Part shown: piece by piece, positions 2,666 to 28,049 of the stretch
Numbering within the stretch: the stretch's first letter is position 1
How the letters are laid out: each line of letters starts with the position of its first letter
Notes under the pieces: model-generated
The model's input: only the letters and a program-made list of their open reading frames with translations
Database searches by the model: none
What the model was told of the DNA's origin: nothing
Assembly: GCA_041891055.1 (NCBI GenBank)
Contig: CP169074.1
Coordinates: forward strand, 1,824,001 to 1,888,000
DNA from: Halorutilales archaeon Cl-col2-1
GTDB taxonomy: Archaea > Halobacteriota > Halobacteria > Halobacteriales > Afararchaeaceae
DNA length: 64,000 nucleotides
Direction of reading: 5' to 3'
Position numbers and translations under genes: made by a program

Positions 2666-2669
2666 CGTG

Positions 2670-2959: not shown

Positions 2960-3118
2960 TATGAAAATCGAAGATTTACTTGTGCTAGAAAACTCTACGA
3001 GTTTTCTGCATCACAGAAATCTCTGATTTCTGAAGACCCGTGAATCTTAGATTCACGGACGTCCTCAGAACGCGAAGCGTTCTGATGTGCGAACGAGACG
3101 CGAAGCGTCTCGTCAACG
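2960..3118 (+). repeat. array of three tandem double-hairpin units (51, 51, 57 nt)
   Basis: Six hairpins, e.g. AGAAAACTC-TAC-GAGTTTTCT, CAGAAATC-TCT-GATTTCTG, CCGTGAATC-TTA-GATTCACGG, TCAGAACGC-GAA-GCGTTCTGA, ACGAGACGC-GAA-GCGTCTCGT. Confidence 0.85.
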
Positions 3119-3149
3119 CTACTCACTCGCTTCGCTCGTTGTGTTGCCG

Positions 3150-3251
3150 TCCGAAAATCTTCGATTTTCGTGATCTCGGAAATCTACGATTTCCGACGGT
3201 ACGCGAATCCTTGATTCGCTCGATCACGAGAGAGCGAAGCTCTCTCGAACG
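3150..3251 (+). repeat. two tandem double-hairpin units (50+52 nt)
   Basis: CGAAAATC-TTC-GATTTTCG, TCGGAAATC-TAC-GATTTCCGA, GCGAATC-CTT-GATTCGC, CGAGAGAGC-GAA-GCTCTCTCG. Confidence 0.85.
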
Positions 3252-12154: not shown

Positions 12155-12616
12155 ATGTCAGACTCCTCGAAGTCGAACGAAAAGGACTGGGAGAACGGTC
12201 TCAAGAGTGAGCCCGTGACGACGTATGTGAGTTACGAGACGAAGGAGATCTGGAAACAACACGCCGAAAACCTCGATACCACACTCAGCCGGTTCGTCGA
12301 GATGATGGTAAACGCGGGAAGATCGATGTACGACGACACCGCTCCTGAGGGATACGAGGACTCGGATCTCGTCTCGGCGAACCGTGAGATTCAGGCTCTC
12401 AGAGACCGGATCGAGGAGATAGAGTCACATCCTGAGTCGGCTGATCCCATAGATGTCTATACGTCTCTCGGCGAGGGCTATGTCACCGTAGACGAGATAT
12501 CCGAGTCGATGGAGTACTCCGAGTCGGAGGTCTACGAGGCACTTCAAACTCTTCTCGACGAGGAGGTCGTCGAGTACGACCCCATGAGGAACGCATACAG
12601 GAGGACGGATGCGTAG
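12155..12616 (+). CDS. DUF5805-like protein (RHH + wHTH) upstream of xerA
   Basis: VTTYVS..K..W..HA...SRFV.MV.AGR; overlaps the integrase start. Confidence 0.8.
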   Translation: MSDSSKSNEKDWENGLKSEPVTTYVSYETKEIWKQHAENLDTTLSRFVEMMVNAGRSMYDDTAPEGYEDSDLVSANREIQALRDRIEEIESHPESADPIDVYTSLGEGYVTVDEISESMEYSESEVYEALQTLLDEEVVEYDPMRNAYRRTDA

Positions 12617-13721
12617 GATAGGTGCTCAAGACCCACTCGACGAGGTCGAGGATCTCGAAGATCACGACTTCATCTCTTACTTCATCGAGGACATGGAAGC
12701 GTATGGCAAATCTTCCTCAACGCTCTACGAGTACGAACGTGTTCTGCGTGACTTCGACGACTTCACTGACACCCACCACGCGCGCGCCTCGAGACGTGAC
12801 TGCATGGGCTATATCTCCGACCTCCGTAGTCGGGGACTCTCAGCGTCGACGGTCTCGACCTATGCCTCCTATCTCCACAGATTCTACTCGTACCTCGTCA
12901 AGGCGGACGAGTTCCCCCACTCTAACAACCCGATGGCTCTCGTCACTGAGGAGATGAGCGAGGGAATAGACAAGAATCCCCAGAGACGTGAACTCTCGGT
13001 CACCGACGTCACTGAGTTCCTCAAGACTGTGAATCACCCGAGGGACAGATGTATACTCGTCACCCTCTTCAAGACGGGGATGCGCGCGGGTGAGCTTTCG
13101 AACCTCAAACTCGAAGACATCTCACTGACTACTGACCTCGACGATGAGTTCGGTCTCGGTGGAAACGCGCGTCTGAGTCGGAACTCACTCCTCGTCGTTA
13201 GCGACAGAGACGGAAACAAACGTCTGCGTGACACTCTGATCCCCATCGACGACGAGCTCAGGAAAGAGCTCGTGAGATGGCTGCGTGTGCGTCCCGAGAA
13301 TGGTAGTTCTCGTGGGCGCGTGAATCAGAAGATTCACGAACGTCTCGAAGCGGAAGCTTCGATGGCTCGGAAATCAGAGATTTCCGAACGTCCCGAGACT
13401 GACTCGGACGCCGTCTTCGTCTCTCTCAGCAGAGCGTCCGAGACGGGAAGTCTCAGCCCTGAGGCGGTCTCTTCCCTGATGAGGAAGTACACTCAGCCTT
13501 ACGGCTGGTGGGAGGAGGGAAGAGGTCTTGAGGAAAACGTCACCCCGCATTACTGCCGCCATTTCTTCACGACCCATCTCAGAGAGGCTTCGGGAGACGA
13601 CGCCCTCGTCAAGTACCTAAGAGGCGATGTCGGCGGAGACGTGATCGAGACCTACACCCATCAGTGGGGTGACAACGTCCGTGAGAGCTATGAGAAGTAC
13701 ATATACCGTCTCGTTTCCTGA
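12609..13721 (+). CDS. xerA: tyrosine recombinase XerA-like, with a 33-aa in-frame repeat insertion
   Basis: TGMRAGE, GNKR, PHYCRH, RGD, catalytic Y in ETYTH. Confidence 0.9.
   Translation: MRRIGAQDPLDEVEDLEDHDFISYFIEDMEAYGKSSSTLYEYERVLRDFDDFTDTHHARASRRDCMGYISDLRSRGLSASTVSTYASYLHRFYSYLVKADEFPHSNNPMALVTEEMSEGIDKNPQRRELSVTDVTEFLKTVNHPRDRCILVTLFKTGMRAGELSNLKLEDISLTTDLDDEFGLGGNARLSRNSLLVVSDRDGNKRLRDTLIPIDDELRKELVRWLRVRPENGSSRGRVNQKIHERLEAEASMARKSEISERPETDSDAVFVSLSRASETGSLSPEAVSSLMRKYTQPYGWWEEGRGLEENVTPHYCRHFFTTHLREASGDDALVKYLRGDVGGDVIETYTHQWGDNVRESYEKYIYRLVS
13292..13390 (+). repeat. two tandem double-hairpin units (51+48 nt) in frame in xerA
   Basis: CGAGAA/TTCTCG, CGTGAATC/GATTCACG, TCGAAGC/GCTTCGA, TCGGAAATC-AGA-GATTTCCGA; CGTCCCGAGA at 13290 and 13389. 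Confidence 0.9.
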
Positions 13722-13742
13722 GGTATATGTCCCTCATAAACT

Positions 13743-14075
13743 CTATTTCGCTATACTGAACACGGTGACTGTGACGAGACAGACGACGTATCCCACGACG
13801 AAGCCGACGGCAGCCGGTACCAGAGACCCCGAGAGACTGAGAGAGAGTCCTGAGAAGAGACGTCTCAGACCCACGAGAATCCAGACGACCTCGAAGACGA
13901 CACCGATTCCGACGAGGGCTACGACTCCGTAGACGGCGTATCTCACGAGACGGAGGACTTTCTTTATGTCTTGGTACTCCTCCGAGACTTCCTCCAGAGA
14001 TCCGAGTAAGTGTTCTGTGATGATGAGGGCGAGCCTGTACACAGTCGACCGCGAGCCTGAGCCGTCTTGGGTCAT
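13743..14075 (-). CDS. hypothetical membrane protein
   Basis: 110-aa ORF with two hydrophobic segments filling the gap. Confidence 0.55.
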   Translation of the reverse strand: MTQDGSGSRSTVYRLALIITEHLLGSLEEVSEEYQDIKKVLRLVRYAVYGVVALVGIGVVFEVVWILVGLRRLFSGLSLSLSGSLVPAAVGFVVGYVVCLVTVTVFSIAK

Positions 14076-14153
14076 GGTTCCGGTGTATAAAGACTCGGGT
14101 GACTTCTACCTTTCGTCCGTATATTTATGTTCTGCCGACACGAGTTACAGCCG

Positions 14154-16319
14154 ATGGGTAATCTCTCGAAGCTCTTCTCGCCTTCACGTGTCGCAGTAAT
14201 TGGAGCGACCGATAGGGAGGGGTCTGTCGGACGTGTGGTGACACAGAACCTCGTCTCGGGGTTCGAGGGAGAGGTGATCGCTGTCAATCCCAACAGGGAC
14301 GAGGTTCTCGGACTTCCGACTTACACCGACGTCGGCTCCGTTCCGGGTGAGATAGACCTGGGCGTCGTAATAGTGCCGGCTCCCGTGGTTCTGGAGGTTC
14401 TCGAAGAGATGGGGAAAGCTGGCGTCACGAACGCCGTCGTCATAACCGCGGGGTTCTCGGAGGCGGGCGACGAGGGGAAGGCGAGAGAGGAGAGGCTGAA
14501 GGAGATCGCCGACGAGTACGGAATCAGCCTCGTAGGTCCCAACTGTATAGGAATAGTAAGTAGTGATTCGGGTCTCAACACGACCTTCACGACCGTGAAA
14601 TACTCGAAGGGAGCCACGTCTTTCATGAGCCAGTCGGGGGCTCTCATAGGTGCAGTCCTCGAATGGGCACCCTCTCACAACATGGGTTTCAACCAAGTCG
14701 TCTCTCTCGGCAACAAGGCTGTACTCGACGAGACCGACTTCATCGAGGACTGGAGTGACGACCCCGACACCGACGTAGTGATGGCATATCTCGAAAGCAT
14801 TGAGGACGGGAGACGTTTCATCAAGAAGACACGTGAGGCTGTGACTGAGACTCCCGTAGTCGCTCTCAAGGCGGGTAGGTCCGAGAAAGGATCGAGGGCG
14901 GCGTCTTCACACACGGGGGCTCTCGCTGGGAGCGACGAGGCGTACGACTCCGCCTTCAGACAGTCAGGCGTCATAAGAGCTGAGACACTTCTCGAACTCT
15001 TCGACTACAGTGACACGCTCGCTGATCAGCCGGTTCCCGAGAAGGACGGCTTAGCAGTGGTCACCAACGGTGGAGGACCCGGGGTCATAGCTACCGACGC
15101 GGTCAGTGACTCGATCGTCTCGTTCGCGGATCTGAGCCACGAGACCGTCGACTACCTCGAAGACCGTCTCCCCGAATCGGCTGTCGTTGAGAATCCTCTC
15201 GACATAATAGGAGACGCAGACGTCGACAGGCTGTCTGACTCACTCGATGCAGTTCTTGGAGATCCTGACGTCGGCGGTGCTCTCGTCATAGTCACTCCGA
15301 ACGGAGTCCTCGACTACAGAGAAGCCGTCGATCCGATAGAGGAAATCCAGAGACGTCACTCGAAGCCCGTAGTGACTTGTATGATGGGCTCCAACGACGA
15401 GACGAGCCAGAGGCTGAGTCAAGCAAACCTACCCGACTTCTTCGATCCTGAGAGGGCGGTCGGGAGCTACGAGGCTCTTGAGAGGTACAGACGTATAAGA
15501 CAGAGATCCCGGGAAGAGAGACACGTCACGGAGTTCGACGTCGACGAGGGGAGGGCACGCGGGATAATCCGAGAAGCCGTCGAAGAGGGTCGTAACCGTC
15601 TCGGCGTCGAGTCGATGGAGATACTCGATGCCTACGGGATACCCACTCCCGACGGCACTGTCGTCGAGACAGCCGACGAAGCCGACGAGGCGGCACGCAG
15701 TATCGACTCCGAAACCGGTACTGTCGTCCTCAAGATAGTCAGCCCCGACATAAGCCACAAGACAGACGTCGGCGGTGTCAGAACGCGTGTCTCCCCAGAC
15801 GACGTCAGAGACGTCTTCTCGGAGATGGTCGAGGAGGTTCGAGACAGACGTCCCGAAGCCGAGATAGAAGGTATTCTCGTACAGGAATCTGTCGACGTCT
15901 CGAAGGGCGAGGAGGTCATAGTCGGTGCGAGAAGCGATCCTCAGTTCGGTCATCTCCTCGTGTTCGGTCTCGGAGGTGTATTCGTCGAGGTCTTCAAGGA
16001 CGTCTCTTTCCGTGTCCCACCTGTCACTCAGCGAGAGGCGGAGGAGATGACCCGCGAGATAGAGTCGGCACCTCTCCTCCGAGGTGCGAGAGGACGTGAC
16101 CCCCTCGATACCGACGGTGTCACTGAAGTCATACAGAGGCTGTCGCAGATGGTGACCGAGATAGATGCGATCGAAGAAGTCGAGGCTAATCCTGTCTTCG
16201 TGGGAACTGGCGGCGTTCAGAAATCTTCTATTTCTGATTCTGAGGACGTCAACCGAAGATTGACGGATGTCGTTGCGCTTGACTTCCGTATGACGGTCGA
16301 CGAGAGCCGGGTCGGTTAA
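14154..16319 (+). CDS. acdAB: ADP-forming acyl-CoA synthetase (fused alpha/beta)
   Basis: VAVIGA, GPNCIG, SQSGA, SHTGALAG, NPLDIIGDA, HKTDVGGV, EANP. Confidence 0.92.
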   Translation: MGNLSKLFSPSRVAVIGATDREGSVGRVVTQNLVSGFEGEVIAVNPNRDEVLGLPTYTDVGSVPGEIDLGVVIVPAPVVLEVLEEMGKAGVTNAVVITAGFSEAGDEGKAREERLKEIADEYGISLVGPNCIGIVSSDSGLNTTFTTVKYSKGATSFMSQSGALIGAVLEWAPSHNMGFNQVVSLGNKAVLDETDFIEDWSDDPDTDVVMAYLESIEDGRRFIKKTREAVTETPVVALKAGRSEKGSRAASSHTGALAGSDEAYDSAFRQSGVIRAETLLELFDYSDTLADQPVPEKDGLAVVTNGGGPGVIATDAVSDSIVSFADLSHETVDYLEDRLPESAVVENPLDIIGDADVDRLSDSLDAVLGDPDVGGALVIVTPNGVLDYREAVDPIEEIQRRHSKPVVTCMMGSNDETSQRLSQANLPDFFDPERAVGSYEALERYRRIRQRSREERHVTEFDVDEGRARGIIREAVEEGRNRLGVESMEILDAYGIPTPDGTVVETADEADEAARSIDSETGTVVLKIVSPDISHKTDVGGVRTRVSPDDVRDVFSEMVEEVRDRRPEAEIEGILVQESVDVSKGEEVIVGARSDPQFGHLLVFGLGGVFVEVFKDVSFRVPPVTQREAEEMTREIESAPLLRGARGRDPLDTDGVTEVIQRLSQMVTEIDAIEEVEANPVFVGTGGVQKSSISDSEDVNRRLTDVVALDFRMTVDESRVG
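16216..16269 (+). repeat. double-hairpin unit (54 nt) in frame in acdAB
   Basis: TCAGAAAT/ATTTCTGA plus CGTCAACC-GAA-GATTGACG; removal restores NPVFVGTGGVVALD. Confidence 0.85.
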
Positions 16320-16324
16320 GATAT

Positions 16325-18061
16325 TTAGTCCTTAGACGACGGTACTGGTGTCAGAGGTTTGTTTTTCCCGTCCCTGAGGCGCACCGTGACAACGGTTCCT
16401 CGCGGCTCCCTGTCTTCGAACTCCAGGTCTCCACCTGATCTCTTGACTATCCAGTGGACGAGCCAGAGTCCGAGACCGCTTCCGTGGTATAAGGGCTCTA
16501 TCTCCCGTTCGTCGCCGAGAACCCCGATGTCCGAATCGGGTATCCTTGATCCGTTGTCCGAGACTCTTATCTCGACCGAGGTGTCGGATTTCTCGACCTC
16601 GACAGACACACGTGGCGTCTCCGTGTCGTTGTGCTCGACAGCGTTGTTGACTAACTCGTCTACTGCACGCGGTATCTGAGGGACTACGTAGGCTGTCGTC
16701 TCTGAGTCTGGGGTGTGAACCTCTATCTCAGCTTCGGGGTATCTCTCCTCATACTCCGAGAGTCTCCTCTCGACTGTCTCGGCGATGTCGACCTCCTCGG
16801 GCGGCGACCTGTCGGAGATTATCTCGACTAACTCGCGTTCCTTGTCAGTGGTGTCGAGCAGACGGTTGCCGACCTCACGTATCTTCTCGGCATATCTTCT
16901 CTCGTCGTCTGTCAGGGACTCCGACTCAGAAAGTTCCTCCGAGTAGCCGAGTATTATGTTCATCTTGTTATGCATGTTGTGGCGGAGGACACGGTCGAAG
17001 ACCTCGAGGTGCTTCTGTCTCTCCTTGAGTTCGCTGTTGAGGACTCGAAGCTCCTTCTCTCTCTTAATACGGTCGAGTGTCGCCTTTGCGTTTCTCGCGA
17101 GTGTCTCGACGAAACGCACGTCTGAGTCGTCGAAAGCTGCCTTGTGTGTCTCACCGACGCTCACGGTTCCGTACCCCTCTATCGGGACGTACATCACCGA
17201 TCTAACGTCTTTCCTGTCGTACTCCGTCTCGACTTCACGTATGTCGTCGAAGACGTATGTCTCCGACTCCCTGTACGCTTTCCCAGCAAGGCTGTCGTGT
17301 ACAGGATACGTCGGCGTTCCGCCTCTGACTTCCTCCGTCTCTGACGTTGACGACACAATAACGAGCTCTTCACTGTCGTCGTCTGTGAAACGCACTCCGT
17401 TTGCGGGGAACCCGAGTACATTCTTCGTCGCCTTGACGATTCTCTGAGCCACCTCGTCGGCGTCGTCGGCGTCTATTAGCTCACGTGTCGTCTCGTGTAG
17501 GCTAGTGAGTATCTCTTCGCTCCTCTGTAGTCTCTCGACGTTCTTCCTCTGGTCTATGGCAAGCTTGAGAAGAGACGCGACTGTCTTTCCTGCGTTTACG
17601 GCGTGGTCGTCGTACTCAGTCTCCTCGCTCGACTCGGGTGCTCCTGTTCCTATGAGTCCGTGCTCACCCACGGGAATCATTATCCCAGACCCCACCGGGA
17701 GTTCGGGATGAACTTCGCTGACATCGTAGATGCTTATGCCGTCACTCTCGAACTGATCCCATTCCAGGTCGTGTCTTCTAATCTCCGTAGGAGCGAACTC
17801 GTCTGCCGACTCGGTTGCTTTTACGAGATTCAGACGTTCTTCCTCCTCATCACGTATCCAGCAAGCCCCGAACGGCAGATCGACTATGTCTGTGAGAGAA
17901 TCCACGGCGATCTCACACAGCCTGTCGATATCTTTCACCCTGTCGTCCTGGAGCCTCCGCGCTGCCTCGTAGACAGACCTGACGGTCTTACCCGGGTCTG
18001 CGTCGAAGTCTGTGCCGGAGTCAGAGCCTGAGGACTGTCCCTCCGAGCCTTTATCCCTCAT
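16325..18061 (-). CDS. GAF-domain sensor histidine kinase
   Basis: Two GAF-like regions, LRHNMHN H-box, ELVNNAVEH, DNG, GSGLGLW. Confidence 0.9.
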   Translation of the reverse strand: MRDKGSEGQSSGSDSGTDFDADPGKTVRSVYEAARRLQDDRVKDIDRLCEIAVDSLTDIVDLPFGACWIRDEEEERLNLVKATESADEFAPTEIRRHDLEWDQFESDGISIYDVSEVHPELPVGSGIMIPVGEHGLIGTGAPESSEETEYDDHAVNAGKTVASLLKLAIDQRKNVERLQRSEEILTSLHETTRELIDADDADEVAQRIVKATKNVLGFPANGVRFTDDDSEELVIVSSTSETEEVRGGTPTYPVHDSLAGKAYRESETYVFDDIREVETEYDRKDVRSVMYVPIEGYGTVSVGETHKAAFDDSDVRFVETLARNAKATLDRIKREKELRVLNSELKERQKHLEVFDRVLRHNMHNKMNIILGYSEELSESESLTDDERRYAEKIREVGNRLLDTTDKERELVEIISDRSPPEEVDIAETVERRLSEYEERYPEAEIEVHTPDSETTAYVVPQIPRAVDELVNNAVEHNDTETPRVSVEVEKSDTSVEIRVSDNGSRIPDSDIGVLGDEREIEPLYHGSGLGLWLVHWIVKRSGGDLEFEDREPRGTVVTVRLRDGKNKPLTPVPSSKD

Positions 18062-18127
18062 ATGACACCGTTCCTACAACCCTACACGACTGAGGATAAT
18101 AGATTTTTGGGAGGTTTATAAGGAGCC

Positions 18128-18310
18128 TCAGGCAATCTCGCCGAAGGAGCCGAAGTACCTGTCGAGTGCTGCCTCAACTGCTTCGTCTTCGTCGTCGAAC
18201 TCGTCGAGTGCCTCACTCAGAAGCTCCAGGAAGTAGGAGTCGTTGACGAGACGGCTCGCGTTACGTCTCGTGAGTCTGCGTCCGTCGTCGGAATCTGTGT
18301 TCTTCCTCAT
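18128..18310 (-). CDS. small hypothetical protein
   Basis: 60-aa acidic ORF co-oriented with neighbours. Confidence 0.5.
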   Translation of the reverse strand: MRKNTDSDDGRRLTRRNASRLVNDSYFLELLSEALDEFDDEDEAVEAALDRYFGSFGEIA

Positions 18311-18354
18311 CCTCTGCGCCCTAAGTCTTCCTCGTTGAAGAAACTGTCTGTGGT

Positions 18355-18711
18355 TTACACGAGATCGGCTTCTGGGTCGCCTTTAGTTTTGTAGAGATCG
18401 TCCCAGGCGGTTATGCCGCCTTGAAGGTTGTAGATCTCGTCGAAGTCGTCGAGGTTGGAGAGGAAGTCGCAGGCGTCCTGACTTCTCGATCCGCTGTGGC
18501 AGTAGACGAGGAGTTTGTCGCCTTCTATCTCGTCGACCCTGTCCGGGAGTATTTCGACCGGTATCAGATGGTCGACGCCGGGTACTCTCTTCCACTCGTA
18601 CTCGTCGGGATTCCTCACATCGAGGAGAGTATAATCGCCGCCCTCTACCATCTCCTTTGCTTCGTCAGGTGTTACGTCGTTGAAGTTCTGATTCTGTGTT
18701 ATCTCTTTCAT
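18355..18711 (-). CDS. rhodanese-like sulfurtransferase
   Basis: LLDVR..EY, YCHSGSRS, NLQGGI.AW. Confidence 0.9.
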   Translation of the reverse strand: MKEITQNQNFNDVTPDEAKEMVEGGDYTLLDVRNPDEYEWKRVPGVDHLIPVEILPDRVDEIEGDKLLVYCHSGSRSQDACDFLSNLDDFDEIYNLQGGITAWDDLYKTKGDPEADLV

Positions 18712-18768
18712 ATTACAACTGTAGTACCACAGCCATATAAGTCTTACCACCACTGAAGAATGGTGGTG

Positions 18769-19371
18769 TTATTTCAGCGCAAGGATCGACTCGCCTGCTC
18801 TAACTGTGTCACCCTCATCGACTTCGAGGTCGTCACGTGAGTATCCGCTAGGAAAGACGATGTCGACGCGTGAACTGAACGCAATCATTCCTATGCGTTC
18901 GCCCCTTTCTACGGAGTCACCTTCATCGAGGTAGGACGTCACTCGTCTCGCGACTGTGCCCGCTATCTGTACCGTCTCTAACTCTCCGTCCGGGGTCTCG
19001 AACCGTGTTACCACGCGCTCGTTTCTCTCGCTTGACTTCGAGAAGGCAGGGAGATGACTTCCGTCTATATGTGTCTGTGATACGACCTTTCCGTCGAGAG
19101 GAGCTCTGTTGACGTGGACGTTGTGGAGGTTCATGAAGACGCCGACGCGGAGCCCTCCCTCCTCCTGCCTTACGACTGAGACACGTCCGTCGGCGGGAGA
19201 GACGACGCCCTCGTCAGGCACGTCACGGTCGGGGTCTCTGAAGAAGGCGGCGATGAGTACGGGAACGCCTAGAAGAGACAGGCTTAGGGGGGAGTCCCAG
19301 AACGGCACTGCGACGAGTGGGAGACAGCCCAGTAGAATCCATCCCAGGGAGCCTTCTGCTAGTCTCGGCAT
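18769..19371 (-). CDS. psd: archaetidylserine/phosphatidylserine decarboxylase
   Basis: FFRDPDR, SPADG, FMNLHNVHVNRAP, NER, QIAG, FSSRVD. Confidence 0.9.
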   Translation of the reverse strand: MPRLAEGSLGWILLGCLPLVAVPFWDSPLSLSLLGVPVLIAAFFRDPDRDVPDEGVVSPADGRVSVVRQEEGGLRVGVFMNLHNVHVNRAPLDGKVVSQTHIDGSHLPAFSKSSERNERVVTRFETPDGELETVQIAGTVARRVTSYLDEGDSVERGERIGMIAFSSRVDIVFPSGYSRDDLEVDEGDTVRAGESILALK

Positions 19372-19460
19372 TTAACGTTGAGACGCCGACTTGACGGTTA
19401 AGGATTTCCGTCCACTAGTGTCAACTACCCCACCCTACTTCGCTCGGTCTGACGACCTCA

Positions 19461-19557
19461 TCTGTAAATCTTTGATTTACAGGCACGCGAATCGAAGATT
19501 CGCGAACGTCTCAAACTCTACGAGTTTGAGGGCTCGGAAATCAGAGATTTCCGAACG
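19461..19557 (+). repeat. two tandem double-hairpin units (48+49 nt) in the IS right end
   Basis: CTGTAAATC-TTT-GATTTACAG, CGCGAATC-GAA-GATTCGCG, CTCAAACTC-TAC-GAGTTTGAG, TCGGAAATC-AGA-GATTTCCGA. Confidence 0.9.
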
Positions 19558-20899
19558 CTCGTTGAGAATGGGGCTTGTCCATGTACTCAACCTCTAACCT
19601 CTCGGTGGAGGAACTACCCTCACTCGGTTTCAGTGTACCGGACTTAAGGGCAAGTTGACACGTTGCCCGTCCGTCCTGTGACTTTTGCACACGACGGACG
19701 TGTTGCGAATCGTTAGATTCGCATACGTCTGCAAAGCTTTGCTTTGTAACATAACGAAGACCGACATTCTTAGAAGCGTTGTAGTCTGCGTCTACCGAAT
19801 ACCCACACTCTCGACACTCAAAGTCGTGTTTCGTCCTGCGGTTACTTCGGTCGGTGTGTCCACAGCGAGAACAAGTCTGACTCGTGTACTCTGGATTCAC
19901 CGACTCGACAGAAACGCCGTACTCTTCGGCTTTGTACTCCACGAACGCGACGAACTGATTGAACGCCCACTGCTGAAACTCTTTGTTGTTCGAGATACGC
20001 TCACGGATGCCGTCAAGCTCCTCGAACACAATAGTAGAACAGTCGTAGCGTACAGCCTCTTCTACGATTTCGTTAGCCCACTTGTGGTACTTCTGATTAC
20101 TCCACTGGCTGAAACGGTCGCCCATACGTTCTATGACCTCGTGAGCGCGACGCGAGCCGTTTCGTTGGAGTGACGCACGCCTACTCTCGTATTCGTCACG
20201 TTCGTGGTTGATATGGTCGCTTGAACCTACGAACCGCCCCGTAGAGGTGACGGCGAAGCTACCTGTGCTGTTCAGGTCTACACCGAGAACCGTTCGCAAA
20301 TCTTCAATCTGCGAGCCATCGAAGCTCCCGCTTCGAGACGTTCCGCTCTCGGTTTCTCCTACGTCCTCTTCTTTCACGACTGAGATATGCAGGTAGTAGT
20401 CGCCGCCCCTGTGGTGTAGCGTCGCCTCTTTCCGTCCCCACTCTTCGGAAAGGTACTCTGTCTGGGGGTTGTCGCCCGTTTCGTCAATCACGAAGTCGGC
20501 TTGTACACGCCCGTCCACGGTTGCGAGAGTACAGCCTTCGTCGGTATACGTGACGGTTCGGTAGTCGTAGGCGACGAACCAACTCTGGAACGTGGGTTTG
20601 GTGGCTTGTTCGCCTTCTTTCCACCGGTTGATTACCTGTTGTAGGCTGTCTACGGCGTAGTCACGCGCCTTCTGTATCAGTCCGGTGTTGAGTCCGGTCT
20701 GTTCCTTGATGTCATCGTAGGTCTGTTCGTGTAGCCACGTCTTGCGCGTGTCTATGTGACCGCCGTCAGTTCGGTTGTTCCATGCGTAGTCTACGGTGTA
20801 CTGACATGCTTCTCGGAACGCCCTGAACGTCTCTCGTAGGCGTTCCTCGTCGGAGCCGTCAACGTCAAGCTTGACCTGTACAGTACGCCGTAGCTCCAT
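19541..20899 (-). CDS. tnpB: RNA-guided endonuclease TnpB with two in-frame repeat insertions
   Basis: RTVQVKL start; GVDLN, FEEL, TSQTCSRCG..CRECG, DADYNAS. Confidence 0.93.
   Translation of the reverse strand: MELRRTVQVKLDVDGSDEERLRETFRAFREACQYTVDYAWNNRTDGGHIDTRKTWLHEQTYDDIKEQTGLNTGLIQKARDYAVDSLQQVINRWKEGEQATKPTFQSWFVAYDYRTVTYTDEGCTLATVDGRVQADFVIDETGDNPQTEYLSEEWGRKEATLHHRGGDYYLHISVVKEEDVGETESGTSRSGSFDGSQIEDLRTVLGVDLNSTGSFAVTSTGRFVGSSDHINHERDEYESRRASLQRNGSRRAHEVIERMGDRFSQWSNQKYHKWANEIVEEAVRYDCSTIVFEELDGIRERISNNKEFQQWAFNQFVAFVEYKAEEYGVSVESVNPEYTSQTCSRCGHTDRSNRRTKHDFECRECGYSVDADYNASKNVGLRYVTKQSFADVCESNDSQHVRRVQKSQDGRATCQLALKSGTLKPSEGSSSTERLEVEYMDKPHSQRAFGNL
19701..19751. repeat. double-hairpin unit (51 nt) in frame in tnpB
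   Basis: TGCGAATC-GTTA-GATTCGCA and TGCAAAGC-TTT-GCTTTGTA; adds VTKQSFADVCESNDSQH. Confidence 0.85.
20291..20338 (-). repeat. double-hairpin unit (48 nt) in frame in tnpB
   Basis: Minus strand TCTCGAAGCGGGAGCTTCGATGGCTCGCAGATTGAAGATTTGCGAACG; CGTTC at 20291 and 20339. Confidence 0.9.
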
Positions 20900-20994
20900 G
20901 CTTATATATTATATCTATACTTACTTAGTTCTTGTGGGGTAATTTACCCACTCAAAGCACTAAGGCTTAAGTAGTGGTGGTCTATATCACCACC

Positions 20995-21138
20995 ATGGCA
21001 GAAGTCAGAGTACAAAATCCAGACATACACGAAGAGAAGACAGCAGATGGAAAGGGACGTGTATATTTGGGCAAAGATTATGAGAACAGGAAGGTCAGAA
21101 TAGTGGTGGAAGTAGTTGACGACGAACCGGAAGAGTAG
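20995..21138 (+). CDS. small AbrB/DUF2080-like IS-associated protein (47 aa)
   Basis: Read by hand: MAEVRVQNPDIHEEKTADGKGRVYLGKDYENRKVRIVVEV... Confidence 0.7.
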   Translation: MAEVRVQNPDIHEEKTADGKGRVYLGKDYENRKVRIVVEVVDDEPEE

Positions 21139-21152
21139 GAGTTGACGGGCTG

Positions 21153-21224
21153 TCACAAAATCTCCGATCTTGTTGGCTCGCTAATCTATGATTAGCGGGC
21201 ACGTAAATCTTAGATTTACGAACG
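21153..21224 (+). repeat. triple-hairpin unit (72 nt) in the IS left end
   Basis: ACAAAATC-TCC-GATCTTGT, CGCTAATC-TAT-GATTAGCG, CGTAAATC-TTA-GATTTACG joined by GGCT/GGCA linkers, ends AACG. Confidence 0.85.
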
Positions 21225-21290
21225 GTTCGTAGAGGGTGGAGTCTTAGCCCTGCCAAAAGATAAAATACTCTTACCGAGTATATGGAATAG

Positions 21291-22160
21291 ATGATCGAGG
21301 CAGACGGGCTCCGGAAGGAGTACGGCGGGTTCGTAGCTGTCGACGGTATCTCGTTCTCGGTCGACGACGGCGAGATATTTGGGATAATAGGTCCCAACGG
21401 CGCGGGGAAGACTACGACCTTAAAGATGGTCTCGGGTCTCGTCGAGCCTACGGCTGGGAGTGCGAGGGTCGCTGGATACGACTCCGAGTCGCTCGACATG
21501 AGGTACCATCTCGGCTACCTCCCCGAAGAGTCGCCGCTCTACGAGGACATGACAGCGGTCTCGTACCTCAAGTTCTTCGCCGACCTCTACGACGTTCCGA
21601 GCCACGTCGCCGAGGAGAGGATACACGAGACACTCGACCGTCTCGACCTCGAACACCGCGACAGGAAGATAGGCGACATGTCTAAGGGTATGAAGAGGAA
21701 GGTCGCCATAACACGGTCACTTGTCAACGACCCCGACGTTCTGATATACGACGAGCCGGCGAGCGGTCTCGATCCCCTCACGACTAACTACATAATCGAG
21801 TTCATGCGTGACCTCCGCGACGAGGGAATGACCATGATCTTCAGCGCGCACAACCTCTTCCATGTCGAGGAGATCTGTGACCGAGTCGTAATACTCAACG
21901 AAGGTGATGTAGTCGCACGTGGCACACTCGACGAGATACGTGACGACTACGGCGGAACCGAGTACCACGTCTACTCGACCGTCGACGTCGAGGGACGCGA
22001 GACGGAGAGGGAGGACGGCAGGTACAGGATAGTCCTCGACTCGATGGACGGCGTCGAGGCACTCCGCGACGAGATCCACGCCGAGGGCGGCGAGATAGAC
22101 GACATACGTACACACGAGCCGAGCCTCGAAGAGATATTCCTCAACGTAGCGAGGAGGTAA
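21291..22160 (+). CDS. ABC exporter ATP-binding protein
   Basis: GPNGAGKTT, MSKGM, YDEP. Confidence 0.95.
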   Translation: MIEADGLRKEYGGFVAVDGISFSVDDGEIFGIIGPNGAGKTTTLKMVSGLVEPTAGSARVAGYDSESLDMRYHLGYLPEESPLYEDMTAVSYLKFFADLYDVPSHVAEERIHETLDRLDLEHRDRKIGDMSKGMKRKVAITRSLVNDPDVLIYDEPASGLDPLTTNYIIEFMRDLRDEGMTMIFSAHNLFHVEEICDRVVILNEGDVVARGTLDEIRDDYGGTEYHVYSTVDVEGRETEREDGRYRIVLDSMDGVEALRDEIHAEGGEIDDIRTHEPSLEEIFLNVARR

Positions 22161-22161
22161 T

Positions 22162-23955
22162 GTGAGGCTCTCGAAGATACTCCGTATATCCAAGTGGGAG
22201 GTCACGAAGTCGACTGGCGACATCGACAGACGCACCGGTGTTCTCGTTCTAGTCGGTGTCTTAGCCGTCGGGGCTCTCGTCCTCGGATACGTCCAGGCGG
22301 GAGCCGTTCTCGATCAGGGAATATACCGTGTCGGAGTCTCGGAGGAGTCGGAGTACTACGACGCCGTCGAAGTCTCCGATCGTCTTGTCGCACGCGAGCC
22401 GAGTATCGAGGACGTCAGGAACGGTGACCTCGACGTCTCTATAGACGACGACATCATACGTTACCACGACTCGAAGAAGGGGAAGGCTGCGGTGTCGGAG
22501 CTCAGGAGCGCGGTACAGGACTACAACGGCTTACTCATGTCGAGGGAGGCAGACGAGGGGAGAGGAGTAGCCGCTTTTCCCGTGAGGGTGAACCTCCTCT
22601 ATGTCAACCAGAATATCACAGTCGGCGGAGGTGACACAGGAGACGGAGCCAGTGGCGGTGGCGGGGGAGCCGGCGGAGGAACGGGTGGTGGAACAGGTGG
22701 TACGGGCAGTGACACGGGTCAGACACCTGTGCCACCCGTCTCGGGCGGCGGCGGTTCGAATATATTTGACTCGAACGAAGGAGCCACGACGCCCTCGGGA
22801 ATATCGCCTCCGTTCCCGTTCGAGTCACTCATACTCGCGTTCGCCTTCATAGTCCCGATGAACTTCATCGTACAGGCTTACGCGAGTAGCATGATCGACG
22901 AGAGGATAAACAGACGCGGTGAGCTACTCCTGATCTCTCCCGTCACGAGGTTCGACGTGATAGCGGGGAAGACTCTTCCCTACTTCGTCGGCATGCTCGG
23001 AGTTGCCTCGCTCACTGCGGGAGGTATAGGCTACGTGTCGGGCGAACTATCGGCTCGGTCGGTGGCTGTGATGGTCTCAGCCGTCGTCCCGGTTATGCTT
23101 GCCTTCCTCTCGACTTCGTTCGTAGGAGCGATGTTCTCCCGGTCGTTCAAGGAGCTCACATTCGTGACAGTCTCTATAAGTGTCTTCCTCACCGCATACG
23201 TCTTCATACCCGCTATATTCACCGACGTCCATCCCATCGCCGTGATATCGCCCATAACACTCGTCGTGCAGGTCTTAGAAGGGAGTCGGGTCGCTGTCTC
23301 CGACTACGTCTTCTCGACACTTCCGCTCTACCTCACCTCGGGAGTCCTCTTCGCACTCGGAGGTGGGGTCTACCGCGAGGAGGACATGTTCACTCAGCGT
23401 CCCGTGCCTCTCAAGGCACTCGACTCGGTGGCGAGCCTCATCTACCGACGTCTCAGCGTCTTCAAGCTGAGTATACTCCTCATACCCTTCGTCTTCGGAG
23501 CCGAGCTACTCGGAATTGCTACACTCTTCGCGCTCCCCGTCGGTGTCTCCGTTCCCGCACTCATGGTTATGATAGCCGTGATCGAGGAGGTCGCAAAGAG
23601 CGTCCATATCTACGCGGGCTTCGAGAAGTCCTACTTCGAGAGAACGCGGCGCGAGGCGGTCGTACTCGGAAGTCTGAGCGGCTTCGGCTTCTTCGTCGGC
23701 GAGAAGATAACTCTCGTGTCCCAGTTAGTTGGACTCCCACAGCTCGAACTCGGACGTGCAGCCTTCGGAGGACATCCCGGACTTCCGACTGCACTCGGTC
23801 TACTCCTCGCGCCGCTCGTCCTCCACGTCGTAACTGCGTCAGTCTCGTCGCTCGGTGCGTCGCGGGGAAGACGTGGATACGCGATAGGTCTCGCGGGAGC
23901 CGTCGTGATACACGCAGTCTACAACATAACGGTGGTGACTACACTTGGGATTTAA
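22162..23955 (+). CDS. ABC-2 permease fused to a PrsW-like domain
   Basis: Many TM segments, IEEVAK, GFFVGEK, LHV, HAVYN. Confidence 0.85.
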   Translation: MRLSKILRISKWEVTKSTGDIDRRTGVLVLVGVLAVGALVLGYVQAGAVLDQGIYRVGVSEESEYYDAVEVSDRLVAREPSIEDVRNGDLDVSIDDDIIRYHDSKKGKAAVSELRSAVQDYNGLLMSREADEGRGVAAFPVRVNLLYVNQNITVGGGDTGDGASGGGGGAGGGTGGGTGGTGSDTGQTPVPPVSGGGGSNIFDSNEGATTPSGISPPFPFESLILAFAFIVPMNFIVQAYASSMIDERINRRGELLLISPVTRFDVIAGKTLPYFVGMLGVASLTAGGIGYVSGELSARSVAVMVSAVVPVMLAFLSTSFVGAMFSRSFKELTFVTVSISVFLTAYVFIPAIFTDVHPIAVISPITLVVQVLEGSRVAVSDYVFSTLPLYLTSGVLFALGGGVYREEDMFTQRPVPLKALDSVASLIYRRLSVFKLSILLIPFVFGAELLGIATLFALPVGVSVPALMVMIAVIEEVAKSVHIYAGFEKSYFERTRREAVVLGSLSGFGFFVGEKITLVSQLVGLPQLELGRAAFGGHPGLPTALGLLLAPLVLHVVTASVSSLGASRGRRGYAIGLAGAVVIHAVYNITVVTTLGI

Positions 23956-25015
23956 ACAGGTACTCACGGTCACTCGACGCGAACTCTCGTCGCTGAGGAG
24001 CGAGAAGACAGTCGTCCTCGCCCTCATGATACAGCTCTTCATAGCCGCTTTCTCGTCTTTCCTCGTCGTGGGTCTCGTCTCGATGTACAGCCCCGACGCC
24101 GTCGGGGACAGCGGCTTCACGGTCGACTACGGGGTCACAGGGGATGCTGCCGACGACGTAGCGCGTGCGATAGACGACGAGGACGGCTGGAGGGTCTCGG
24201 AGTACGAAAGCTACGAGGCGGCTATGTCGGAGTTCAGTGGGGGTGGTCTCGACGTAGTACTCGACACCTCACGTCTCGAAAACGGACGTATCGAAATAAC
24301 GGCTGTCGTCCCCGACTCGAGTATACGTACGACCCTCATCGTCGTACAGGCGAAACAGGCTCTCCAGACCGTCGAGAGGAGCCAGAGAGCCGAGATGAGT
24401 TCGACCCTCGAACGTCAGCCTGTTCCCCTTCCTGAGAAGGTCGGGTCGAGCCCCTACTTCGGCTTCACCTACACGGTTCTAATACCACTCCTGATGTTTC
24501 TCCCAGTCTTCATAAGCGGGAGCATCTCGTCCGACTCTATCACGGAGGAGTTCGAGAGGGGAACATTCGATCTACTTAGGACGGCTCCGATCTCCGAGAA
24601 CGAGATAATCGACGGCAAGATGGCGGCTATGGCTGTCCTCTCGCCCGTACAGGCGGCGGTCTGGCTCGGACTCCTGCGTTTCAACGGCACTGCGGTAGAA
24701 CGTCCCTTCCTACTCGTCGCCGTCGTCGCCGCCTTCTCCGTGATAACCGTGACCGCGGGCTCGACGGTCGCGCTCCGGTTTAGAGACAGGAAGAAGGCAC
24801 AGTTCATCTACTCCGTGAGCCTCATGCTTATATTCGGCGCGCTCCATCTCGACCTCGGCGTCATACCCGAGTCACCCACCAACACCGTCGCGAAGCTAGC
24901 TATAGGTAGTTCGACCCCCGAGACGTATCTCATGGTCGCCGTCTACGCCGTTCTCGCGGTCGTGGGCTATCTCGCCGTCAGACGCGGGTTCGTCCCCTCG
25001 CTCTCGGATTCGTAA
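23945..25015 (+). CDS. ABC-2 permease
   Basis: RRELSSL.., DSITEEFERGT..LL..P, TM segments. Confidence 0.88.
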   Translation: MGFKQVLTVTRRELSSLRSEKTVVLALMIQLFIAAFSSFLVVGLVSMYSPDAVGDSGFTVDYGVTGDAADDVARAIDDEDGWRVSEYESYEAAMSEFSGGGLDVVLDTSRLENGRIEITAVVPDSSIRTTLIVVQAKQALQTVERSQRAEMSSTLERQPVPLPEKVGSSPYFGFTYTVLIPLLMFLPVFISGSISSDSITEEFERGTFDLLRTAPISENEIIDGKMAAMAVLSPVQAAVWLGLLRFNGTAVERPFLLVAVVAAFSVITVTAGSTVALRFRDRKKAQFIYSVSLMLIFGALHLDLGVIPESPTNTVAKLAIGSSTPETYLMVAVYAVLAVVGYLAVRRGFVPSLSDS

Positions 25016-25058
25016 CGTAACAAATAGATACTTATCCGAGGAGGACGACCTACGGAGT

Positions 25059-25238
25059 ATGCAGGAAACCTGGGTAAACGTCGAATGTAACAGCTGTGGA
25101 GAGACTTGGGAGGTAAAGGTCTCGGAGCTCCCGGTCGACAACGGAACGTTCAGGTGTAAGGAGTGTGGCAACGAGTCTCCCGTCAAGGAGTTCCTCAAGA
25201 CTGAGAAGGATCTCGAAGTCTACGACGAACTCAAGTAG
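25059..25238 (+). CDS. small zinc-finger protein (59 aa)
   Basis: Read by hand: MQETWVNVECNSCGETW...FRCKECG. Confidence 0.8.
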   Translation: MQETWVNVECNSCGETWEVKVSELPVDNGTFRCKECGNESPVKEFLKTEKDLEVYDELK

Positions 25239-25250
25239 TACCGACTCATA

Positions 25251-25883
25251 TCACACCGCGTCGACTGCGGTCTCAAGTAGGTCAAGTGCACGTACGGCGT
25301 CGTCTCTCTCTACGACTATTATCGTCTCGGTGTAACACGAGGTGATGTCGACTATGTTTATCTCCTCCGACGTGAAACGTGATATCATGTACGACAGAAC
25401 ACCCGAGACATCGGTGATCTCCTCGGGCGACTCGACGACGATACCCGTGAGGTCGTGTCTCTCCTCGACTACCTCGCCCTCGCCGTCCTCGATACCCTCC
25501 CTGACCTCGTCGGCGTAGGTGTCGTCTGTGACTACCGTGGTGTAACTCCTCCCACGAACGAGATGGAAGAAGCCCGACTCTATACCTAAGTCTCCCACAC
25601 GTGTCGCCGTGAAAGAGACGACGTTTCCCCTCAGAGAGACCCTCGAACCGCCGAGCACCTCCCTTACCCTCTCGACGTTCTCGACACCGTCTTCGAGCTC
25701 GTCGCCGTACCTTCTCAGTGCCGTCGTCACCGCCTCTATGTTGACGTCTCCGCCGACCTCCTCTTCGACCTCGGGCTTTATCTTCCTCGCTAAAGCGCGG
25801 TAGTTGACGACGCCCTCACGGAGACAGTCGAGCATATACGGATAACGAGATACGACATCGCGGCAGTCCTGTGCGAGTGACAT
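25251..25883 (-). CDS. ACT-domain protein (probable regulator)
   Basis: GVVNYRALAR..AVTTALRRY; C-terminal GVL..INIVDITSCYTE. Confidence 0.85.
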   Translation of the reverse strand: MSLAQDCRDVVSRYPYMLDCLREGVVNYRALARKIKPEVEEEVGGDVNIEAVTTALRRYGDELEDGVENVERVREVLGGSRVSLRGNVVSFTATRVGDLGIESGFFHLVRGRSYTTVVTDDTYADEVREGIEDGEGEVVEERHDLTGIVVESPEEITDVSGVLSYMISRFTSEEINIVDITSCYTETIIVVERDDAVRALDLLETAVDAV

Positions 25884-25989
25884 ACATGTAGTACGTCATA
25901 ACAGACTAAAATACTGTGGTTTTGAACTATATAAGTCATTAACGACCCAAATACAAAGACTTTAGTTCTTTTACGTCTTAGACTGAGGT

Positions 25990-27243
25990 ATGACAGAGAC
26001 AGATACACGTAAAGCAGTCCTCGCCTTCTCGGGAGGTCTCGACACGAGCGTCTGTGTTCCCCTTCTCAAGGAGGAGTACGGATACGACGAGGTCATTCCC
26101 GTAGTCGTCGACGTCGGACAGCCCGAGGAGGACATGGAGGAAGCCTACGAACGCGCTGAGGAGCTTGACCTCGATCTCCGTGTCGTCGAGGCGAGCGAGG
26201 AGTACGCCGAGGAGTACATACTCCCCCTCATAAAGGCAAACGGAAGCTACGAGGGTTACCCGATGGGCACGAGCATAGCGCGTCCCGTCATAGCGCGCCA
26301 CTGTCTCGACATAGCCCTCGAAGAGGACGCCGACGGTCTCGCACACGGCTGTACGGGAAAGGGCAACGACCAGCTCAGATTCGAGGCGGTCTGGCGTGAG
26401 TCCGACCTGGAGATAATTGCTCCGATGCGTGAGAAGAACCTCACTCGTGAGTGGGAAATAGAGTACGCACAGGATCACGGCATGAGCGTCCGAGCGACGA
26501 AGGAGGAGCCGTGGTCGATAGACTCGAACCTCTGGAGCCGTTCGATAGAGGGAGGAGACCTCGAAAACCCGTCGAACGAGCCTCCTGAGGAGATCTTCGA
26601 GTGGACGGCGTCTCCCGTCGATGCCCCCGACGAACCCGAGGTAGTCGAGATAGAGTTCGAGGAGGGCAGACCCGTCGCTCTAAACGTCGTCGAGGGAACC
26701 TCGACTGGCTCTCAGACTCCGTCTGGGAATGGAAACGAGATGGATCTTCTCGAACTCATAAGGGAGCTACACGACGTCGCGGGGAAACACGGCGTCGGAA
26801 GAAACGACATGATGGAGGATCGCGTCTTAGGTCTCAAGGTGCGCGAGGTCTACGAGCACCCTGCGGCGACAGTCCTCCTCAAGGCACACGAGGATCTCGA
26901 GAGCCTCGTCCTCACACGTTCACAGCTCAAGTTCAAGTCGGGGGTCGAGGAAGAATGGAGCGAACTCGCCTACAAGGGACTCGTCAACGAGCCTCTCTAC
27001 GACGACCTCAACGCCTTCATAGAGTCGACACAGGAGAACGTCACCGGAACCGTGAGGGTCAAGCTCCACAAGGGAACCGCACGCGTCGTCGGACGTGAGA
27101 GTCCCTACGGTCTCTACGGCGAGGAGATGGTCTCGTTCGACACGGGAAGCGTGACACAGGACATAGACCAGACCGACGCCGTCGGCTTCTCGAAGTACCA
27201 CGGCATACAGGGACGGTTCAGGAAGAAGTTCAAGGATCAGTAG
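25990..27243 (+). CDS. argG: argininosuccinate synthase with a 15-aa in-frame insertion
   Basis: AFSGGLDTS, HGCTGKGNDQLRF, SIDSNLWSRSIEGG, REVYEHP. Confidence 0.96.
   Translation: MTETDTRKAVLAFSGGLDTSVCVPLLKEEYGYDEVIPVVVDVGQPEEDMEEAYERAEELDLDLRVVEASEEYAEEYILPLIKANGSYEGYPMGTSIARPVIARHCLDIALEEDADGLAHGCTGKGNDQLRFEAVWRESDLEIIAPMREKNLTREWEIEYAQDHGMSVRATKEEPWSIDSNLWSRSIEGGDLENPSNEPPEEIFEWTASPVDAPDEPEVVEIEFEEGRPVALNVVEGTSTGSQTPSGNGNEMDLLELIRELHDVAGKHGVGRNDMMEDRVLGLKVREVYEHPAATVLLKAHEDLESLVLTRSQLKFKSGVEEEWSELAYKGLVNEPLYDDLNAFIESTQENVTGTVRVKLHKGTARVVGRESPYGLYGEEMVSFDTGSVTQDIDQTDAVGFSKYHGIQGRFRKKFKDQ
26687..26731 (+). repeat. double-hairpin unit (45 nt) in frame in argG
   Basis: GTCGAGG-GAA-CCTCGAC TGGCT CTCAGAC-TCC-GTCTGGG AATG; removal restores PVALNGNEM. 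Confidence 0.85.
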
Positions 27244-27344
27244 TCACCGCCCTTCGTAGAGGCGGTCTCGTAGATCCAGTAACGTAACTGCTTTGCGCAA
27301 ACCCACCCAAAGGCACAATATTCTGTGTATACATACTTTTCTGT

Positions 27345-27575
27345 ATGCCCAGCATCACGGTCAACGTAGACGCCGACCTCAAAGAGAGAATGGAAGAGCA
27401 TCCCGAGATCAACTGGAGTGAGGTAACACGCCAAGCCATACAGGAGAAAGTAGAGACACTTGAAGTAATGGACGAACTCACAAGTGAGAGCGAGCTTACC
27501 GAAACTGACGTTCAGGAGATTGCCGAGAAGATCAACGAATCCGGACGTAATCGCGTCGACAAGGATTTAGCCTAG
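27345..27575 (+). CDS. antitoxin (VapB-like, RHH)
   Basis: MPSITVNVDADLKERM..HPEINWSEV.RQAI, upstream of a PIN gene. Confidence 0.88.
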   Translation: MPSITVNVDADLKERMEEHPEINWSEVTRQAIQEKVETLEVMDELTSESELTETDVQEIAEKINESGRNRVDKDLA

Positions 27576-27584
27576 ACTCGAAAG

Positions 27585-28049
27585 ATGAAGCTGGTTATCG
27601 ACGCCAACGTCTTCAGATCTATGATCTGAAGGCTCATCAATCTCCGATTGAGGAACGTTGTTATCTCTGCACTTATCGCCGATTCAAAAACACGTGAACT
27701 CATCGTCACACTCGAACCCGATCTCCTGACACCTGAGTTTGTCCACGACGAAGTCGAGAATTACGAAGACATGATTGCAGTGAAGTCGGGCATGGAACCG
27801 GATCGAGTAGAACAGTTCATGGATCTCCTGTTCCAGTACATCGAGACGGCTCCTGCTGACGAATTCTATCCGTCGATTGAGACAGCGAAAGAAGCAATCG
27901 GATATACCGACCCGGACGATGTGCTCTACTTAGCCTGCGCGATCGAAAGAAATGCTGCTATCTGGAGCGATGACTCTGACTTCGACAGACAGGACTTAGT
28001 CGACACTTACTCGACGAGTGACGTAATCAACTCGTTTGATACAGTCTAA
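27585..28049 (+). pseudogene. vapC: PIN-domain toxin VapC interrupted by a 48-nt unit carrying an in-frame TGA
   Basis: MKLVIDAN[insert; TGA 27627-27629]VVISALI...DPDD..YLACA..IWSDDSDF. Confidence 0.85.
27610..27657 (+). repeat. double-hairpin unit (48 nt) in vapC
   Basis: CTTCAGATC-TAT-GATCTGAAG GCTCA TCAATC-TCC-GATTGA GGAACG; AACGT at 27606 and 27654. Confidence 0.9.

Follow-up and report, generated by a model that had tools for sequence, protein, structure and literature searches.

We analyzed a 64,000-nucleotide stretch of the genome of Halorutilales archaeon Cl-col2-1 (contig CP169074.1, positions 1,824,001 to 1,888,000; the window), in which short two-hairpin units lie between genes and also within the reading frames of xerA, acd, argG, and tnpB. 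These units probably belong to a family of mobile DNA elements that are very small (45 to 57 nt each) and carry no gene, and inside a gene copies probably persist only when their length is a multiple of three (3n) and their reading frame is free of stop codons. The evidence comes from the structure of the units, their presence and absence between two genomes of the genus and in environmental contigs, and a genome-wide comparison of genic and intergenic lengths.

Read on one strand, a unit is composed of TC, hairpin A, a linker, hairpin B, and (A)ACG, in this order. Hairpin A is perfect (stem, 6 to 9; loop, 3 to 6), the linker is short and usually (T/C/G)GGC, and hairpin B, likewise perfect, very often has the form CGnnAATC-loop-GATTnnCG. 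The stems vary among copies yet stay perfectly paired, both arms changing together. Indeed, among the 212 AATC-N3-4-GATT sites of the genome, at least three of the next four positions were paired in 181 and all four in 132. A 19-letter motif matched the window 9 times, against 0.10 expected, and hairpin arrays, defined as two or more adjacent perfect hairpins, numbered 114 in the genome compared with 8 in the shuffled main chromosome. Unit sizes ranged from 45 to 57 nt across fixed copies and presence/absence events. A search of window positions 12000 to 30000 with the covariance models of Rfam 15 gave no matches at E values up to 0.1.

A first-pass annotation of the window had proposed that the insertions are length-agnostic and that selection retains those preserving the frame, and it had set beforehand a genome-wide test of length modulo 3 in genic versus intergenic copies. 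We carried out this test by comparing the source genome (G000; 2.06 Mb in four contigs) with a genome of the same genus (G001), of which 39 contigs, amounting to 1.50 Mb of about 1.9 Mb, were aligned to G000 with BLAST. An event was required to measure 38 to 260 nt, to contain at least one perfect hairpin, and to have well-matched flanks, those with more than 30 mismatches per 140 flanking bases being dropped. Overlapping alignment pieces were trimmed and neighboring gaps were merged; split or complex events may still escape detection. This gave 21 presence/absence events, in both directions. All 10 gene-internal events were 3n (45, 45, 51, 54, 51, 54, 48, 48, 99, and 54 nt), with frames open throughout the inserts, whereas only one of the nine intergenic events was 3n (113, 49, 46, 49, 97, 155, 92, 50, and 48 nt; Fisher's test, p = 1.2e-4). 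The remaining two were the vapC unit described below and a 49-nt insertion in a gene tail, which lies 9 nt before the stop codon and rewrites the C terminus.

The arrays fixed in G000, which served as a second and independent measure, behaved in the same manner. Their boundaries were set by a rule, with the start placed after the nearest upstream CG and the end after the first downstream CG, and where both ends could be placed, 3n lengths were found in 8/8 gene-internal arrays versus 8/28 intergenic ones. Thus, both counts support the proposal that insertion ignores length and selection filters the result. Intergenic two-hairpin units measured 47 (3 copies), 48 (2 copies), 49 (11 copies), 51 (1 copy), 56 (1 copy), and 57 nt (3 copies). 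The claim that non-3n copies occur in noncoding DNA and gene tails was borne out by this mode of 49 nt and by a 49-nt copy at 19509-19557 in the window. Only 16 of the 114 arrays lay wholly in called genes, while 87% of the chromosome is called coding; another 13 were "edge" arrays, many copies lying just after genes, and both orientations occurred among the genic copies. A 3n length is necessary but not sufficient, because the 48-nt unit in vapC carries an in-frame stop. That intact genes hold 3n lengths only is a necessary outcome of purifying selection; what is informative is that core enzymes tolerate these insertions at all and that the commonest length (49 nt) is missing from genes.

In the window, the unit lengths given by the first-pass annotation (99 nt for xerA, 54 for acd, 51 and 48 for tnpB, 45 for argG, and 48 for vapC) were all correct when checked against the sequence (Table 1). 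In xerA, the two adjoining units (51 + 48 = 99 nt) are exactly the extra stretch of G000 relative to G001, with an imperfect 13-nt repeat (one mismatch) at the junctions. The resulting 33 residues (232-264) were missing from all 10 aligned orthologues. The gene acd, encoding ADP-forming acetyl-CoA synthetase, contains 18 extra residues, KSSISDSEDVNRRLTDVV, over two decayed AATC-type hairpins (TCAGAAATC..TATTTCTGA and CGTCAACC..GATTGACG in the DNA); in an alignment with 13 orthologues, only G000 and G001 carried them, and the 12 orthologues of other genera were without them. The argG unit is canonical and directly follows AACG, measuring 48 nt in G000 and 45 nt in G001, and its 15 to 16 residues (232-247) were also missing from 12 orthologues of other genera. 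In both argG and acd, the hairpins have decayed while the reading frame is kept in the two species. At xerA, argG, and acd, the absence of the residues from outgroup genera means that the filled state is the derived one. Orthologues carrying the same residues without palindromic DNA had been named beforehand as the finding that would speak against insertion; the orthologues lacked the residues, which in these genes are encoded by hairpins.

Table 1. Units, host genes, and related hairpins in the window (coordinates are window positions)
Feature	Position	Strand	Basis or description
xerA-like tyrosine recombinase gene	12609..13721	+	Pfam Phage_integrase and SAM-like N-terminal domain; hosts the insertion
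Unit 1 in xerA, 51 nt	13292..13342	+	TCC, hairpin CGAGAA/TTCTCG, TGGGCG, hairpin CGTGAATC/GATTCACG, AACG
Unit 2 in xerA, 48 nt	13343..13390	+	Sequence
Degenerate two-hairpin unit in acd	16216..16274 (edges approximate)	-	54 nt, 18 residues; gene 14127-16319, + strand
Intergenic 48-nt unit downstream of tnpB	19458..19505	+	G000-specific; exact 48-nt gap in G001
49-nt unit spanning the tnpB stop codon (gene tail)	19509..19557	+	Sequence
tnpB, IS605-type, Cas12f1-like TNB domain	19541..20899	-	Pfam
51-nt in-frame unit in tnpB	19700..19750	-	17 residues VTKQSFADVCESNDSQH; hairpins CAAAGC/GCTTTG and TGCGAATC/GATTCGCA
48-nt in-frame unit in tnpB	20291..20338	-	GTSRSGSFDGSQIEDL; just before the RuvC-I motif; canonical, after AACG
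Pair of neighboring AATC-type hairpins, upstream of an ABC-transporter gene	21175..21224	+	Region differs between G000 and G001
Unit in argG (25990-27243)	26687..26734	+	TC, GTCGAGG/CCTCGAC, TGGC, TCTCAGAC/GTCTGGGA
48-nt G000-specific unit inside vapC (original start 27585)	27610..27657	+	In-frame TGA at 27627-27629
Additional arrays of this hairpin family, next to another tnpB	1161..3216		Outside the range of the finding

The 51-nt unit of tnpB corresponded to a gap in 8 of 11 paralogues and to shorter stretches in the other 3, and the peptide of the 48-nt unit, GTSRSGSFDGSQIEDL, was present in 3 of 12 aligned TnpB copies (the window copy and 2 of the 11 paralogues). At the tail of the gene, the end of the open reading frame (ORF) falls within hairpin B of the 49-nt unit, which encodes the C-terminal ...SQRAFGNL. 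In vapC, G000 reads MKLVIDANVFRSMI and then stops, versus MKLVIDANVVISAL... in G001; here the unit truncates the gene and adds no peptide. Thus, the claim of in-frame peptide additions held for xerA, acd, argG, and both tnpB units, whose residues are missing from orthologues or from most paralogues, and failed for vapC. The term "core enzymes" does not apply to TnpB and VapC.

The same 16 residues of GTSRSGSFDGSQIEDL, encoded by the same 48-nt unit, stand at the identical pre-RuvC-I position in three TnpB paralogues (window 20291-20338, G000 C1:129993-130035, and C1:219451-219493), which are only 46 to 49% identical. The sharing of this peptide among diverged proteins points to repeated hot-spot insertion or to gene conversion.

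Besides XerA, ArgG, and Acd in the window, hosts recognized by Pfam were the glutamate synthase large subunit, a type I phosphodiesterase, a DUF3209 protein, a beta-CASP nuclease, an M24 peptidase, a Hel308-like helicase, a tetrapyrrole methylase, the archaeal S-adenosylmethionine (SAM) synthetase, an intein-bearing PolB, and ThiN. The added peptides, of 15 to 18 residues per unit and 15 to 33 per insertion, have a high content of Ser, Arg, Glu, Asp, and Thr. In three proteins unrelated to each other, one unit type is read in the same frame and encodes ..RESEDSRA.. there. In AlphaFold models, the insert residues of ArgG and XerA coincided with low-confidence stretches, while the flanking elements were well modeled: residues 237-246 of ArgG, within the 232-247 insert, had a predicted local distance difference test score (pLDDT) of <50, and in XerA confidence was low in two stretches (232-241 and 251-264), as well as in a helix (235-251) that lies between the two. 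Surface loops had been expected at the insert sites. Low-confidence stretches between well-modeled elements fit loops, although pLDDT does not measure exposure, and where modeled the insert sites would seem to be tolerant, loop-like positions.

Two of these hosts deserve separate mention. The gene for the Hel308-like helicase (G000 C1:1725262-1727559) contains an array of three hairpins in G000, to which an extra 48-nt unit is added at the same site in G001; array and extra unit together account for about 50 hairpin-encoded residues in one loop. In the PolB gene, which also has intein and LAGLIDADG matches, an in-frame hairpin pair (G000 C1:645164-645208) is located in the region (residues 968-1352) covered by the intein-splicing match from Pfam.

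The units are mobile, as their presence and absence between the two species and in environmental contigs demonstrates. We aligned contigs of four metagenome runs on window positions 12001-30000; the contigs holding this stretch were labeled hypersaline or salt lake. In three of the four runs, a contig skipped the 99 nt of xerA, and the same count was obtained for contigs skipping the 48 nt at 19458-19505 and for contigs without the vapC unit. The absence of these three units from such contigs indicates that they are recent. One contig without the vapC unit differed from the window at 36 of 2522 positions (98.6% identical), which implies that the vapC disruption is polymorphic within a near-identical population. 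On a wider scale, the 19-letter motif occurred 57 times in G000, 54 times in G001, and at most 11 times in each of 149 other genomes of the order, and at least one match was found in 40 of the 151 genomes of the order versus a single hit for the reversed control. The family is thus widespread at low copy number and expanded in this genus.

We considered whether the 3n rule might originate in the insertion process, with 3n-long subfamilies aimed at or generated in coding DNA, instead of in selection. The genic units are mostly 48, 51, and 54 nt long and often have 4-nt loops (CGCGAATC tgaa GATTCGCG), and the repeated use of one frame by the ..RESEDSRA.. unit type would also be in line with such a process. 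However, a recent 48-nt insertion is intergenic (19458-19505), another sits in vapC with its stop, and genes receive units in both orientations; the low occupancy of genes is what the loss of harmful insertions is expected to leave. We therefore judge a process-driven rule to be quite improbable. It is also known that archaea splice some RNAs at structured motifs, and the units might be excised at the RNA level or bypassed during translation, leaving the proteins unchanged. The units are strong hairpins; no positive evidence for this was found. If it were so, length and stop codons would be irrelevant, yet all 10 polymorphic genic units and all 8 fixed ones with ends set by the rule are 3n with open frames, the argG and acd hairpins have decayed without loss of the frame, and no Rfam family was matched; this explanation is very improbable. 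By the same reasoning, we infer that the units are translated with their host genes and that the added residues are in the proteins: removal or bypass would make length and stop codons irrelevant, so that the presence of strictly 3n, stop-free units in genes that stay intact speaks for units that are read, as does the decay of the argG and acd hairpins with the frame kept in two species.

Another possibility is that the empty alleles reflect loss and not insertion, the units having been deleted precisely by way of short repeats at their flanks. Short direct repeats do flank many units (0 to 11 nt, and the 13 nt with one mismatch at xerA), and repeat-mediated deletion has been described in haloarchaea (Dyall-Smith et al. 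2011, PMC3119063). Against this stand xerA, argG, and acd, where the outgroup genera mark the filled state as derived, and as a general account deletion appears unlikely. It may have caused some of the other 18 events, which leaves the 3n result unaffected. The hairpins could also be signals selected by the host, for example terminators, RNA stabilizers, or protein-binding sites, with the genic copies as by-products. Perfect stems with compensating differences suggest a pressure to keep pairing, and the many copies just after genes, including the 13 edge arrays, would suit such a role; nevertheless, the contrast between some 55 motif copies in each of the two genomes of this genus and 11 or fewer in the 149 others, the presence/absence within a species-level population, and the nesting of copies in insertion sequence (IS) ends fit selfish spread and do not fit a conserved host signal, to which we assign only a small probability.

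Some aspects of the data weigh against the interpretation of the units as mobile copies filtered by selection and translated in genes. Events were sought only where G000 and G001 align, with 0.4 Mb of G001 lying outside the comparison, and genes were called by our own crude codon-usage caller and no standard program. In 57 of 85 intergenic arrays and in 6 of 14 genic-internal ones, the boundary rule could place no ends. That the units are translated is deduced from the length and frame patterns. Finally, the ArgG and XerA models are of moderate quality, having been built from 14 and 11 sequences only (mean pLDDT, 68 and 74), and exposure is not given by pLDDT.

The units are strongly associated with IS605-type elements. 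The genome contains tnpB in about 30 copies and one gene for a Y1 transposase (PF01797 match, C1:979038-979397). Against an expectation of about 1, 33 of the 114 arrays were located no more than 300 nt from a tnpB ORF, 5 more were inside tnpB ORFs, and 20 of 29 tnpB loci were affected by arrays. In our model, units would land in DNA whatever their own length, pile up in tandem, and concentrate at IS605-type (tnpB) ends. Inside genes, only 3n, stop-free copies would persist and be transcribed and translated with the gene, and the added stretches, hydrophilic and of 15 to 18 residues per unit, would stand at tolerant positions. As for movement, our best guess is a single-strand, hairpin-recognizing route resembling the "peel and paste" of IS200/IS605, in which a unit would insert on the 3' side of a short target that ends in CG and so resembles the 3' end of the unit itself. 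The CG end of one unit might then be the target for the next, which would explain the tandem arrays.

Of the 21 events, which lie in unique DNA, nine could be placed as ...CG/T....CG/ (slashes mark the placement). The other 12 did not fit this placement, and this counts against the proposed route together with two further observations. The native tnpB/tnpA end hairpins are GC rich (e.g., CCCGCACC..GGTGCGGG), unlike the units, which in the flanks of 29 tnpB ORFs were inserted within or beside these native end hairpins; and the length of junction microhomology varied between 0 and 11 nt, reaching 13 nt at xerA if one mismatch is allowed, a spread that a fixed-target transposase does not predict. 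The Y1 gene belongs to an ordinary IS200/IS605 element with tnpB and has a hairpin array on one side only. Targeting of hairpin loops, suggested by the xerA site and some IS ends, was rejected as a general rule: the best stem around the 21 empty sites averaged 3.4 bp versus 3.2 bp at 3000 random places.

The Y1-bearing IS itself has six small hairpins packed in the loop of its end hairpin CCCCGCCC...GGGCGGGG (G000 C1:979447-979586). Three elements with no evident gene were present in one species only (G000 C1:35531-36046, 516 nt; G000 C1:533102-533634, 533 nt; and G001 C12 near 25805, 544 nt). Their GC-rich end hairpins are in turn crowded with small hairpin units, and they look like derivatives of IS605-type elements of the PATE type discussed below. 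The orientation of AATC-type hairpins was uneven along C1 in 200-kb bins, with forward:reverse ratios of 1:8 at 200-400 kb, 2:8, and 15:4 beyond 1.6 Mb; a strand bias would be expected of lagging-strand insertion, and this skew could reflect replication direction or merely tandem arrays, in which copies are not independent.

Among known systems, the first-pass annotation had drawn a likeness to Rickettsia palindromic elements. Those elements are summarized as selfish and as located both between genes and in frame in housekeeping genes (Ogata et al. 2000, summarized in review PMC10969869), and intragenic miniature inverted-repeat transposable elements are known in other bacteria according to the same review (PMC10969869). 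Both the Rickettsia elements and our units are palindromic repeats lying in frame in unrelated protein genes, where they add, or in the case of the units would add, a peptide without destroying the protein. The Rickettsia elements, however, are bacterial, about 100 to 150 bp long, and fall into sequence-conserved families encoding a conserved peptide, whereas the units are archaeal, 45 to 57 nt long, and made of two independent hairpins with variable stems, a distinction drawn from length and description.

The PATEs of Haloquadratum walsbyi, which are terminal-only versions of IS605-type elements, 52 bp long and apparently mobile (Dyall-Smith et al. 2011, PMC3119063), resemble the units in several respects: like the units, they are haloarchaeal, about 50 bp long, tnpB associated, and apparently mobile, with two palindromes and no transposase. 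The units also have sub-terminal palindromes, no terminal inverted repeats, and no transposase gene, and the one Y1 transposase gene of the genome could potentially act in trans, its action on the units being putative. They differ in that their palindromes are unlike the end hairpins of the resident IS605-type elements, into which they are inserted; PATEs are described as the fused ends of a specific IS. As regards insertion 3' of a fixed target of 4 to 5 nt without duplication, 9 of the 21 events fit the placement at CG, and the junctions had 0 to 11 nt of microhomology. In-frame genic copies are not mentioned in the passages of PMC3119063 consulted, as distinct from its supplementary lists. 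The same paper describes the Haloquadratum SMR-A elements (HqIRS42/43/55), about 110 bp long with prominent terminal inverted repeats, whose mobilization its authors called enigmatic (PMC3119063). They share with the units a small, gene-less constitution, the lack of regular target duplication, and a location in the near-terminal palindromes of IS605-type elements; such targeting of IS605 ends is seen here in the 33 arrays near tnpB and in the examples inside end hairpins. The units are half their size, however, and the unit ends TC.. and ..ACG are not inverted repeats.

Besides these haloarchaeal families, the architecture of the arrays invites comparison with a bacterial one. Bacterial REP/BIME elements, which go with RAYT (Y1) transposases, resemble the units in being short hairpins that form mosaic arrays in tandem, where types alternate and linkers are fixed; the genome studied here likewise has one Y1 transposase gene. 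In REP/RAYT systems, a single-copy Y1 gene has inverted REPs on both sides. The Y1 gene here has an array on one side only, in an IS that also carries tnpB, and the units have no GTAG-type head. We found no published account of in-frame mini-hairpin insertions in archaea in the literature searched, which did not cover the Haloquadratum supplementary element lists.

Two other differences between the genomes were noted near the host genes. In G001, about 1.86 kb that is absent from G000 follows the end of argG and precedes the vapBC pair (window 27233-27241). At window 16601-16799, inside a GAF/histidine-kinase gene (16325-18061, minus strand), G000 is 198 nt longer than G001; this stretch is hairpin free, has a 44-nt overlap at the G001 junction, and has the appearance of a different type of in-frame change, either a duplication or a deletion.

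It is a real, if still tentative, possibility that the mobile elements of haloarchaea include a class not yet described, ultra-small (about 48 nt) and built of two hairpins, with stems altered by paired changes, a movement unexplained by the annotated transposases, and about 100 arrays in this genus, serving as a standing source of 15- to 18-residue loops in core enzymes such as glutamate synthase, argininosuccinate synthase, SAM synthetase, the Hel308-like helicase, and XerA. If true, this would be an archaeal counterpart of the coding palindromes of Rickettsia that is still polymorphic in natural populations; what is new is the type of element and its occurrence in this domain of life, the principle itself being already known. 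Such an element would lie near the lower size limit for mobile DNA. For genome annotation, the units would matter as a cause of new C termini, of split genes as in vapC, and of loops resembling lineage-specific inserts. Furthermore, the family would provide a natural, still active archaeal system for how selfish DNA creates protein insertions, in which single-unit differences in essential enzymes between sister species and environmental populations would make the age, fitness cost, and structural tolerance of such insertions measurable.

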